From an uncultured delta proteobacterium (lineage in GTDB: Bacteria; Myxococcota_A; Polyangia; Palsa-1104): a stretch of DNA of 64,000 nucleotides. Below are positions 13,814 to 18,209 of the stretch, piece after piece; the first letter of the stretch is position 1; each line of letters begins with the position of its first letter. The position numbers were made by a program, and so were the translations under genes. The notes beneath the pieces were generated by a model. That model had not been told where the DNA came from and did no database searches. It was given only the letters and a program-made list of their open reading frames with translations. Where the stretch lies: NCBI GenBank assembly GCA_963785725.1, contig CAWAWS010000007.1:576001-640000 (forward strand). The letters are read 5' to 3'.

Positions 13814-13894
13814 CTTATTGTCACTTCGACAATAAGCCCAGACTTCGCGTCACCGCGACAATAAGGTTCGACTTACTGTCGAATCGACAGTAAC
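13814..13894. repeat. Three tandem 23-bp palindromes (9-5-9) at 29-bp period
   Basis: CTTATTGTC-ACTTC-GACAATAAG (13814), CTTCGCGTC-ACCGC-GACAATAAG (13843), CTTACTGTC-GAATC-GACAGTAAC (13872). Confidence 0.9.
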
Positions 13895-16041
13895 TACTTG
13901 CGACGCAAGAGCAGCGCTTCGCCGAGCAGCAGCAGCAGCAGCGCGGCGCCGAGCGTGTGCCATAGCTCGACGCGGCGCTTGGGCACCGCTTGCGCCGACG
14001 CCGCGCCGCCGCCGGCCGTGAGCGCGCGCAGCCGCGCGGCGTCGATGGGCGTCGGATCGGACTCGGCCGCGTCCACATCGATGACGAAGCTGGCGTCGGG
14101 CCGCGCCCGCATGACGCCGTCGCGACCGGCGGCGGCGACGCGGTAGATGCCGGGCTCGTCCGTGGCCTCGAAGCCGAGCAGCCGCCGCCCCGCGACCTTG
14201 TCCTTCTCGAACGCCAGCTGCTTGCCCGATGGTTGCGTCACTTCGACGCGAAGGTCGCCGTCGTGCAGCGGGATCTCGTGGCGCTGTCCGACGGTCTGCG
14301 CCGCTTCCGGATCGTGCATGGGCGCGCGGGCGAGATAACGCGTGGCCTGCTGCATGAGCGGCAAGAAGGCCGGCTGAATCGGCAGATCGGTCCAGTCGCG
14401 ATCGAGCGTCGACGCCCACACGAGCACGCGGCCGGCGCCGAGGCGACCTTCGAGCAGCGCCGGCGCGCCGTCGGCAAAGCGCAGGAGAACCTGCCGTTCG
14501 CCTTCGGGGCGCGGGCGAAACAGCGCGTAACGCGAGAAGCGCGCCGCTTGCAATGCCTCGCCCGCCTGCGCGTCGGCGAGCGGCGCGAGCAGCGGATGAT
14601 TGCGGTCGATGCGCCCGAGGCGCATGCCGTCGCCGCCGGCGCGGCGCTCGCCATCGTCGCGATCGGCGGCCGTGGCGCCGACGGTGCGCAGCGTCTGCAG
14701 CGGCTGCGGCAACAGATCGCCGAGCGCGCCGTTGTAAGCGTCGGAGTCGACGTTGTCGCCGAGCGCGATGAAGAGGCCGCCGCCGCTTTGCACGTACTCG
14801 CGCAGCGCGTCGCCGTCGGGCTGCTTGACGTTGCACAAGAAGACGACGTCGAAGTCGGCGAGGCGGCGACCGGCCAATTCGTCGGCGGCGACGGTGCTGA
14901 CGTCGAGCTGTGAGTCGTCGCGATCGCCGGGCCGCAGCGCGGTCTCCAAGTAGAACACTTCGTCGTCGCGGCGCGAGGTGCGCGGATCGCCGTCGACGAC
15001 GAGCACCCTCAGCGCGCGCCGGACTTCGACGCGGGCGAAGCGGCGGTCATCGAGCGGCAGGACGTCGGGCAAAAGCTCGGCGGTGACGTCGTAGACGCCG
15101 AGCTCGCCGCCGCCGGCGCGCGGCTCGAGCACGTGGAAGAAGCGCTTGATGGCGCGCCCGTGCGCCGGCACGTCGACGAGCCCTTTGGCCACGGCGTGCC
15201 CGTCGACGCGCAAGGTCATCGGCAGCTCCTTGACCGCTTGCGCGCCGAAGTTGGCGACGTCGACGGAGATGCGCACGCCGCGCGGCCCGAGATGCGGCGC
15301 CGGCTCGGTGCGCACGTCGACGACGGCGCGGTTGGCGGCCGGGGTCCCGTCGCTGACGTCGACGACGACGAGCTCGGGCCCGCGTCCGGCGGCCCACGGC
15401 GGCTCCGAGCCAAACCCATGCGCCGCCAGATCCGACAACAAGTAGACGCGATGCGCCGGCCGCGATGCCGTCACCAGAATCTGCGCCGCCCGCTTGAGCG
15501 CGCCGGTTATGTCAGTTGCACAATAAGTCGGGCGGATCTGGGCCAGCTCGCGCTGCAGCTTGATGCGATCGCCGGTCAATTGCGCCACCGGCGCGCCGCC
15601 GTCGCGGGAGCCGAGGACGATGGCCACTTCCGAGTCGCTGCCGAGCGCGTCGAGGATGCGGCGCGCGCGATACTTCGCCGTCGCCAGCAGCGTGCGTCCG
15701 CTGCGCTCCGCCGACATCGACAGGGAGTCGTCGATGACGAGCACCGCCGACTGCGCGCCGGCCACCGCCGACGCCGGCAAATCGTGGCTCGTGGCCTCGA
15801 CGAAGGGCTTCGCCAAGATCAGCGGCACCGCGGCGATCGCCAGCGCGCGTAAGAGTAGGAGCAGCCAGCGCTGCAGCTTCGTCCGCCGCGCGACGCGGCG
15901 ATCGCTGCGCTGCAAGAGCTCCATCGCGGCGAAGCGGCGCACGCGCGCGCGGCTGCGGCCGATCAAGTGGATGGCGATGGGGATGGCGAAGGTTATTGTC
16001 GCAATGACGTAACCAGGCGACAGAAAGCCGAGCCCGCTCAT
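13894..16041 (-). CDS. BatA/VWA domain membrane protein (MoxR-associated)
   Basis: N-terminal FLSP...IPIAIHL BatA motif, MIDAS DDSLSM, LLSD, YV.xGGGL GATase-like segment, WTDLP, C-terminal TM; ATG 16041 overlaps the DUF58 stop. Confidence 0.9.
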   Translation of the reverse strand: MSGLGFLSPGYVIATITFAIPIAIHLIGRSRARVRRFAAMELLQRSDRRVARRTKLQRWLLLLLRALAIAAVPLILAKPFVEATSHDLPASAVAGAQSAVLVIDDSLSMSAERSGRTLLATAKYRARRILDALGSDSEVAIVLGSRDGGAPVAQLTGDRIKLQRELAQIRPTYCATDITGALKRAAQILVTASRPAHRVYLLSDLAAHGFGSEPPWAAGRGPELVVVDVSDGTPAANRAVVDVRTEPAPHLGPRGVRISVDVANFGAQAVKELPMTLRVDGHAVAKGLVDVPAHGRAIKRFFHVLEPRAGGGELGVYDVTAELLPDVLPLDDRRFARVEVRRALRVLVVDGDPRTSRRDDEVFYLETALRPGDRDDSQLDVSTVAADELAGRRLADFDVVFLCNVKQPDGDALREYVQSGGGLFIALGDNVDSDAYNGALGDLLPQPLQTLRTVGATAADRDDGERRAGGDGMRLGRIDRNHPLLAPLADAQAGEALQAARFSRYALFRPRPEGERQVLLRFADGAPALLEGRLGAGRVLVWASTLDRDWTDLPIQPAFLPLMQQATRYLARAPMHDPEAAQTVGQRHEIPLHDGDLRVEVTQPSGKQLAFEKDKVAGRRLLGFEATDEPGIYRVAAAGRDGVMRARPDASFVIDVDAAESDPTPIDAARLRALTAGGGAASAQAVPKRRVELWHTLGAALLLLLLGEALLLRRK
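15505..15527. promoter_or_regulatory. Intragenic copy of the 23-bp palindromic motif
   Basis: GGTTATGTC-AGTTG-CACAATAAG; coding strand reads ACT TAT TGT GCA ACT GAC ATA. Confidence 0.7.
15992..16014. promoter_or_regulatory. Intragenic copy of the 23-bp palindromic motif
   Basis: GTTATTGTC-GCAAT-GACGTAACC; coding strand uses GGT, ATT, ACA and ATA. Confidence 0.7.
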
Positions 16042-16978: not shown

Positions 16979-17979
16979 TCATGGCCGCACGCTCTCGAGC
17001 AGACGATCGATGAGCGCGCGCGTCTTCACGCCTTCGGCTTCGGCGTGGAAGTTGGTGATCATGCGGTGCTGCAGCGTCGGATGGGCCAGCGCGCGCACGT
17101 CTTCGATCGTCGGCGCCGGCCGGCCGTCGAGGATCGCGCGCGCCTTCGCGCCGAGGATCAGGATACTGCGACGCGCGCGGCCCGGCGCCGAACGAGACGT
17201 TGTCGCGGATGAACGGCAGCGTCGACTCCGCCGGCCGCGTCGCGCGCACCAGCGCCACCGCGTAGCGCACGACGTGATCGGCGACCGGCACGCGCAGCAC
17301 CAGCTCCTGCAGCGCCAGGATGCGCTCGGGCGACAGGACCTTCTGCGGCGACGGCCGATGAGCGCTCGTCTGCTGCTTGACGATCGCCACTTCCTCTTCC
17401 GCCGTCGGATAGCCGACGTCGACCTGGAACATGAAGCGATCGAGCTGCGCCTCCGGCAAGCGGATACGTGCCCTCCTGCTCGATCGGGTTCTGCGTCGCG
17501 AACACGAGGAACGGCGCCGGCAGCGGGTGCGTCGCGCCGCCGGCGGTCACGCGGTACTCCTGCATCGACTGCAGCAGCGCCGCCTGCGTCTTGGGCGGCG
17601 TGCGGTTGATCTCGTCGGCGAGCACGATGTTGGCGAACACCGGACCGTGGATGAAGCGGAACACGCGCCTGCCGGTCGCGTGATCCTCCTCGAGCACGTC
17701 GGTGCCGGTGATGTCCGACGGCATGAGATCGGGCGTGAACTGGATGCGGTTGAAGCTGAGGTTCAGCACCTCGGCGAGCGTCGAGATGAGCAGCGTCTTG
17801 GCGAGGCCGGGCACGCCGACGAACAGGCAGTGGCCGCGCGCGAACAGCGACGACGAGCAGCTGATCGATCGACCGCGCTGCTGGCCGATGATGCGCTTCT
17901 CCACTTCCGCTTTGATCTCGATGCGAGCGCGCGCGATCTCTTCTACGGCGCGCAAATCAGCTGGGGTCTCGGCCACCAT
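16979..17979 (-). CDS. moxR: MoxR family AAA+ ATPase, interrupted by five apparent 1-nt insertions (probably consensus errors)
   Basis: [46 protein letters not shown] and GAGPRA motifs are spread over frames; removing 5 nt gives 996 nt = 332 codons ending at TGA 16979-16981. Confidence 0.9.
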
Positions 17980-18209
17980 CGGCCGTCAGTGTGCCACGAA
18001 ACGGGCGGCGATGCCCGGCCGTCGACGCGACAATCACGCTGGCCGCGCGCGCGACGACGAGCGACGCGGCCGCGGTCGCGCTCGGCGGTGCGATTGCGCA
18101 CAGCGCGCGCCCGTCGGCCCGTTACGCGCGCGCAACCTCAACGGGCCGTAGGCATTCCATGACCGCGACGCCGCCCAGCTCCGATTTCCAACGACGGGCG
18201 AGACGAAGG

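Follow-up and report, generated by a model that had tools for sequence, protein, structure and literature searches.

Why should one 23-bp palindrome be repeated seven times within 3.2 kb of bacterial DNA, inside genes as well as between them, and which protein would read it? The question is raised by a 64,000-nt stretch of the genome of an uncultured delta proteobacterium (contig CAWAWS010000007.1, positions 576,001 to 640,000), referred to here as the window. A sequence-only reading had proposed a candidate centromere-like site, recognized by a dimeric DNA-binding protein encoded elsewhere. The palindrome does behave like the site of such a protein, but the suggested ParB-like binder was wrong, since the motif tracks the gene for NrtR, a Nudix and winged-helix regulator. 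NrtR very probably binds the palindrome as its operator, and what is described here is likely a familiar type of site, newly arranged.

The assembly that contains the window (G000) comprises 8.9 Mb in 47 contigs, with 68% GC and a completeness of 88%. C-numbers denote its contigs and G-numbers denote genomes.

Copies of the palindrome in the window

All seven copies that had been named are present and score, in order of position, 33.0, 25.2, 28.8, 22.4, 20.8, 25.4, and 35.4 bits with a matrix trained on 47 sites of relatives (these were chosen via a first matrix from this genome, and the scores are not fully independent of it). Markov-simulated windows (n = 60) contained no site of at least 20 bits, and shuffled sequence (n = 100) gave no match at three mismatches, versus four observed. 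The arms had been called conserved, and four of the seven copies do lie within three mismatches of the exact 23-mer; only one matches it in full, however, and the arms are more degenerate than claimed. The degenerate consensus of the 47-site matrix is SKTHNYGT-N7-ACRNDAMS, in which the G, T, A, and C of the GT-N7-AC core are each conserved at 99–100%.

The copies lie among the genes as the sequence-only reading had described, with three between convergent stop codons (GH92/vWA), two strong ones in the vWA gene, one in the DUF58 gene, and one in the moxR-DUF58 spacer. They span the 3′ part of a minus-strand gene run (DUF4175, TPR-peptidase, moxR, DUF58, BatA-vWA) and its convergent junction with the GH92 gene. 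The first three boxes (13814–13836, 13843–13865, and 13872–13894) stand in tandem with a 29-bp period. Box 1 has perfect arms, and its identical 23-mer recurs at C19:156576, there too between convergent stops; box 3 touches the stop codon of the vWA gene. Within that gene, one box (15505–15527) begins at codon 172 and uses rare codons, and another (15992–16014) occupies the opening codons. The DUF58 gene holds the box at 16574–16596, and the strongest box of the window (16948–16970) falls in the spacer between moxR and DUF58, where it precedes the DUF58 start by 13 bp.

That the 64 kb hold no further full copy was also borne out, the next-best place (14231–14253, in the vWA gene) scoring 11.3 bits. 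This weak eighth box had been missed; it occupies the same codons in all five genus members, scoring 9.9–13.7 bits in the four others and −5.8 to −20.7 bits in four outgroups. Three weaker candidates that had been listed, at 18015, 15434, and 15851, score −7.1, −13.7, and −21.6 bits and are rejected.

Evidence for NrtR as the binder

The sequence-only reading had recommended a matrix scan of the genome and its relatives. The scan found the motif conserved in relatives and, in this genome, three arrays rather than a single cluster. There are 21 sites of at least 20 bits genome-wide, against 0–10 at ten control spacer lengths, none of which gave a comparable excess of top-scoring sites. Eighteen of them fall into the arrays (seven in the window, five at C14:33.2–38.0 kb, and six at C19:156.6–167.9 kb), with singles on C5, C37, and C39.

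The C14 array surrounds the only nrtR of the genome and the pncA-pncB-nadE operon for nicotinamide adenine dinucleotide (NAD) salvage. The regulator gene (C14:34338–34946; NUDIX plus NrtR_WHD) is followed by pncA, pncB, and nadE; it is the single NrtR_WHD match in this 88% complete genome, and its product matches the solved Shewanella NrtR (3GZ5/3GZ6) with an E value of 7e-32. The best site of the whole genome (36.3 bits) lies 5 bp past the nrtR stop codon and 17 bp before the pncA start. The NrtR family consensus has a GT-N7-AC core (PMC2330246; papers cited by PMC number are drawn on in part throughout), and the invariant core of our matrix is the same, the comparison being one of core consensus only. 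Members of the family repress NAD-salvage genes. They bind their palindrome as dimers, through winged helices, and ADP-ribose or a related ligand releases them (PMC2330246; PMC4666351).

Co-occurrence with nrtR was assessed at 30 pncB loci from the order; four loci without pncA were set aside. Wherever nrtR is adjacent (nine of nine loci), the nrtR-pncA gap holds a site of 19.3–36.3 bits; the matrix had drawn on four of these genomes and not on G003, G012, G013, and G014. Where pncA lacks an adjacent nrtR, 15 of 16 loci reach 13.6 bits at most (the exception, G035, is taken up below). In G011, a contig begins at a matching site, and nrtR ends another contig. The association extends to other phyla: among 80 distant NrtR homologues (43–53% identity), the best site reaches at least 12 bits at 25 loci, against 4–12 loci at seven control spacers. 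There, the site often lies within about 100 bp upstream of nrtR and is nearly always a single copy.

A second NrtR-like gene occurs in G001, G003, and G004. It is not needed to explain the arrays, because no site of at least 9 bits adjoins it and no such gene was found in this genome.

Two further features of the home locus may be recorded. In five relatives, a 460-aa methyltransferase-domain gene stands directly upstream of nrtR (L010:4759–6159 and its equivalents in G001–G003 and G010); this genome lacks it there. At C14:32063–34090, beneath the upstream portion of the home array, a small Cys-rich peptide gene is followed by MbnB/TglH/ChrH (DUF692) and DUF2063 genes, a trio that resembles a cluster for a ribosomally synthesized and post-translationally modified peptide.

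Multiplication in one genus and origin of the array

Copy numbers were compared using a degenerate pattern; of the 21 strong sites, it recovers 19. It matches 25, 51, 19, 12, and 56 times in the five genomes of the genus (controls 2–5) and 2–8 times in six other family members (controls 3–9). Across 201 scanned genomes of the class, enrichment is seen in this genus only, the largest count elsewhere being 16 against a control of 30. Four other genera of the family have essentially one site, in the nrtR-pncA gap, whereas in G001–G004 the home array reaches kilobases past the NAD operon. All five genus members have an array at the moxR-vWA locus (7, 6, 4, 2–3, and 6 sites). In all 18 other genomes, no site at this locus reaches 14 bits; four of these genomes retain nrtR with one box, and in three of the four the contigs are short.

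The window array was built in place by point changes through codons. In codon alignments, residues are identical or nearly identical between outgroups and genus; the outgroups spell them with GC-rich codons, and the genus uses TTA, ATA, ACT, and CAA. A mobile palindromic element is ruled out, as the sites replace codons in place without insertion. The box at 16574 scores 23.6–25.4 bits in G001, G003, and G004 and 11.5 bits in G002; the same place in four outgroups falls below −3 bits, with the same or nearly the same residues encoded. The 15505 box is found in four of the five genus members and is absent from four outgroups, and the moxR-DUF58 junction box is present also in G001, G002, and G004.

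The array persists through turnover of individual sites, as two positions that differ between species show. The 15992 box is strong in this genome only (at most 5.9 bits in three relatives scored at the same place). Conversely, the TPR/peptidase-MA gene of the same run (18210–19736, minus strand) has a box in G001, G002, and G004, with residue changes, and none in this genome. Of the 90 codons beneath 11 intragenic sites, 31 are rare (at most 5% synonymous use), whereas in the remainder of these genes 134 of 4893 are. The excess is partly circular because an AT-rich motif forces rare codons.

Proposed function of the window array

We favor, at a probability of about one half, the reading that the window holds a satellite NrtR operator array, at which several dimers would bind together and would likely dampen transcription of the moxR-DUF58-vWA genes beneath it, with release by an NAD-derived effector. 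Such an effector is assumed by analogy with tested members of the family, in which it is ADP-ribose; in this organism it may be another compound. The 16948 box might be the main operator; the other boxes might be auxiliary, raising its occupancy by looping or local concentration, and could perhaps block elongating polymerase. This arrangement is favored because the home operator is itself flanked by extra sites and because the 16948 box, lying after the stop of one gene and just before the start of the next, repeats the geometry of the nrtR-pncA box. That the extra home sites run on past the NAD operon suggests the pattern expected of auxiliary sites.

Several observations weigh against NrtR as the binder or against local regulation by it. 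In G035 (96% complete, in 960 contigs), pncA is preceded by a 23.4-bit site, and a search of that genome yielded no NrtR. Some loci behind the outgroup comparisons are short contigs. Among the residues that contact ADP-ribose in Shewanella NrtR, which include R41, K76, R98, and the Y10/F15 region (PMC4666351), R41 and K76 are kept here, R98 aligns with Asp, and the N-terminal Y10/F15 region is unmatched. A consensus scan of 13500–23200 gave no sigma-70-like promoter, and two of the strongest boxes lie between convergent stops and cannot overlap the promoter of either gene. A common function of the genes under satellite arrays was sought and none was seen: in this genome they are moxR/vWA, nucleotidyltransferase, GNAT, and UDP-glucose dehydrogenase genes, and in relatives they are genes whose best matches in this genome include menaquinone, ligase, epimerase, recombinase, and respiratory genes (names taken partly from reading the sequences). 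Finally, most intragenic PhoB sites in Escherichia coli are transcriptionally inert (PMC10294691); unlike those sites, which are not conserved, the boxes here are partly conserved.

Genes resembling nagZ and murU/amgK near satellite arrays are a hint only.

Alternative explanations

The main rival, with clearly lower odds, is that NrtR binds the satellites without regulating the genes beneath them. The satellites would then bridge to the home array or to one another, the repressor doubling as a loop anchor, or would serve as a pool of decoys, setting the point at which NAD salvage switches on. Such a role would suit sites that cover unrelated genes, extend over operon ends, and fall between convergent stops, an array that persists while its members turn over, and a copy number that ranges from 12 to 56 between species. 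The GntR-like box described below has the same layout of home plus satellites, and in G002, 11 of 19 pattern matches lie 45–340 kb to one side of the dnaA/parS region. There are precedents in GalR (PMC5110547) and Rok (PMC11841835). The strongest window box, however, is placed like the true operator, immediately ahead of a start codon; by contig geometry, at least about 420 kb separate the window array from dnaA; and NrtR-family dimers are described as covering one site, with no bridging described in the portion of PMC4666351 drawn on.

That NrtR binds and the arrays are a near-neutral by-product without effect is unlikely. Inert intragenic sites are common in E. coli (PMC10294691), and the sites here turn over between species, but the finding of 7 of 21 sites in 3.2 kb of an 8.9-Mb genome is not due to chance, and several sites are kept across species at about 70–80% protein identity. 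The excess of rare codons under the sites (31/90 versus 134/4893) points the same way, with the circularity already mentioned.

We also regard as improbable that the sites load a dedicated chromosome organizer and that one array covers nrtR by chance. Sites of parS/ParB, Noc, SlmA, and MatP are palindromes that ignore gene boundaries, and the layout here is clustered in the same way. Two further points in favor of an organizer are the G035 site without NrtR and some excess of sites on one side of the origin in G002. Here, however, clustering across gene boundaries does not point to a nucleoid protein, as the sequence-only reading had supposed, because GntR- and TetR-like boxes of this genome cluster likewise. 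The motif follows a metabolic repressor, into other phyla as well; four other genera of the family retain roughly the single site in the nrtR-pncA gap; and enrichment in one genus among 201 genomes is unlike an essential segregation site.

The parS-like candidate itself fails, since canonical parS and parAB exist elsewhere. Canonical parS, whose absence had been suggested as a check, has three copies at C19:123.7 kb, separate from the motif and at a distance of 8.6 kb from dnaA, and two copies at one place in each of the five relatives searched. There is a single parB (one TIGR00180 match), beside parA, and its helix-turn-helix region is presumably of the parS-binding type. A non-canonical parS is rejected on these grounds. 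The parAB pair (C6:332436–334143) lies on a different contig from dnaA and the parS triple (C19:113.7–123.8 kb), contig geometry implying a distance of at least about 150 kb. The window array, at the distance from dnaA given above, is not clustered next to the origin; another array of the palindrome is 42–53 kb from dnaA. GC skew per contig is too weak for mapping of origin and terminus in this 47-contig assembly; synteny with a 9-contig relative (G002) suggests the order C19-C38-C14 and breaks down elsewhere.

An RNA hairpin or repetitive extragenic palindromic (REP)-like element, acting as terminator or transcript stabilizer, is highly improbable and largely refuted, even though the triple site folds well (13800–13900, z = −4.1) and many copies follow stop codons, because the arms do not covary: in 116 distinct sites they pair at 5.55 of 9 positions versus 5.75 ± 0.12 with half-sites re-paired at random, only two sites are perfect, and the halves vary independently, like protein half-sites. 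The independent arms reject a terminator too; a terminator scan gave nine weak candidates versus 5.0 ± 2.8 in shuffles.

Comparison with known systems

Published NrtR sites, whether single or tandem, either overlap promoters or sit in the stretch from promoter to start codon (PMC2330246). By position, the nrtR-pncA box and possibly the 16948 box fit this placement; the intragenic and convergent-stop copies do not. Known NrtR operators (PMC2330246; 3GZ5/3GZ6) otherwise share with ours the Nudix and winged-helix regulator beside pncA-pncB-nadE, a 21–23-bp palindrome with a GT-N7-AC core, a site immediately ahead of the first target gene, and tandem sites. What differs from the published sites drawn on is the number (12–56 copies per genome), the arrays of 5–10 sites through coding sequence, and the presence at loci without an evident NAD role, along with effector residues that are only partly kept relative to Shewanella.

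GalR of E. coli is likewise an ordinary metabolic repressor with extra sites outside its pathway and has been proposed to restructure the chromosome (PMC5110547). The extra GalR sites lie upstream of genes, in contrast to the dense intragenic arrays here, and bridging, which would be conjecture for NrtR, is reported for GalR. Rok of Bacillus subtilis also has few genomic clusters of sites, some over regulated genes and some not (PMC11841835); in contrast to the specific long palindromes in 68% GC genes described here, Rok is H-NS-like, prefers AT-rich DNA, and has been shown to bridge.

A literature search returned no description of NrtR arrays, of homotypic or intragenic bacterial operator arrays like these, or of NrtR in myxobacteria, subscription papers being mostly outside its coverage. 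The analysis therefore extends NrtR motifs to a group without earlier description in the literature searched, and it both names a likely binder and removes the centromere reading. The architecture is unusual in that the box of a repressor with one or two operators has been multiplied 12- to 56-fold into kilobase arrays within genes, in one genus whose sister genera keep one site. One site versus arrays, read by the same recognition helix, provides a natural contrast for studying clustered intragenic repressor sites as roadblock, antenna, decoy, or loop anchor.

Other multiplied boxes in the genome

A de novo scan of the genome revealed several further multiplied box families. The GntR/FadR-like box AATGGTT-N-AACCATT has 209 matches (controls 26–37), 174 of them in five clusters and often with a 21-bp period. 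Clusters lie at C7:352–390 kb, C7:421–436 kb, C33:40–64 kb, and C39:304–316 kb. A gntR gene at C7:368 kb is inside the largest, and others lie over unrelated S1, DHFR, peptidase, and glycosyltransferase genes. This box is also multiplied in G012 and G007.

A second family, TAGTCAA-N5-TTGACTA, forms tandem arrays of 4–16 copies with a 21-bp period (C4:192–197 kb, C6:118–120 kb, C29:26 kb, C12:25 kb, C16:27 and 496 kb, C14:132 kb, and C20:260 kb), two of which are near acyl-CoA dehydrogenase and enoyl-CoA hydratase genes. The third, AGTGATA-N4-TATCACT-like, has 8–12 copies at C39:656–668 kb, C16:366 kb, and C33:208–209 kb, two arrays adjoining tetR genes; this box clusters at two further loci as well. 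The fourth, ATGTGC-N4-GCACA, forms two clusters at C7:514–540 kb, near a PHB_acc_N DNA-binding gene.

A bolder proposal, which we consider doubtful, is that the genus gave its ligand-sensing repressors eukaryote-like homotypic clusters, placed in coding sequence at a home locus and at remote satellites, and that NrtR-bridged arrays let NAD status reversibly refold the chromosome and silence or expose multi-gene blocks.

Genes under and around the window array

The GH92 glycoside hydrolase gene (11294–13807, plus strand; PF07971, PF17678) ends at the left edge of the array and is not at this place in G001–G004. On the minus strand follow the BatA/vWA gene (13894–16041; PF07584, PF13519), with three boxes inside when the weak one is counted, and the DUF58/vWA gene (16041–16934; PF01882), with one.

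The moxR AAA+ ATPase gene (16979–17979, minus strand; PF07726; 3′ end judged by eye) is frameshifted in this assembly. This is likely an assembly error, because related contigs lack single bases at five places (about 17161, 17458, 17855, 17871, and 17877) and G001, G003, and G004 each have the gene as a single open frame.

Divergent from the moxR run, at 23031–24094 (plus strand), is a gene that reads as a sigma factor of the extracytoplasmic function type, with a zf-HC2 anti-sigma-like neighbor; it is kept in place across the family. Farther to the left, 5050–8904 (plus strand) encodes a 1284-aa Cys-rich protein with Cu-binding_MopE repeats.

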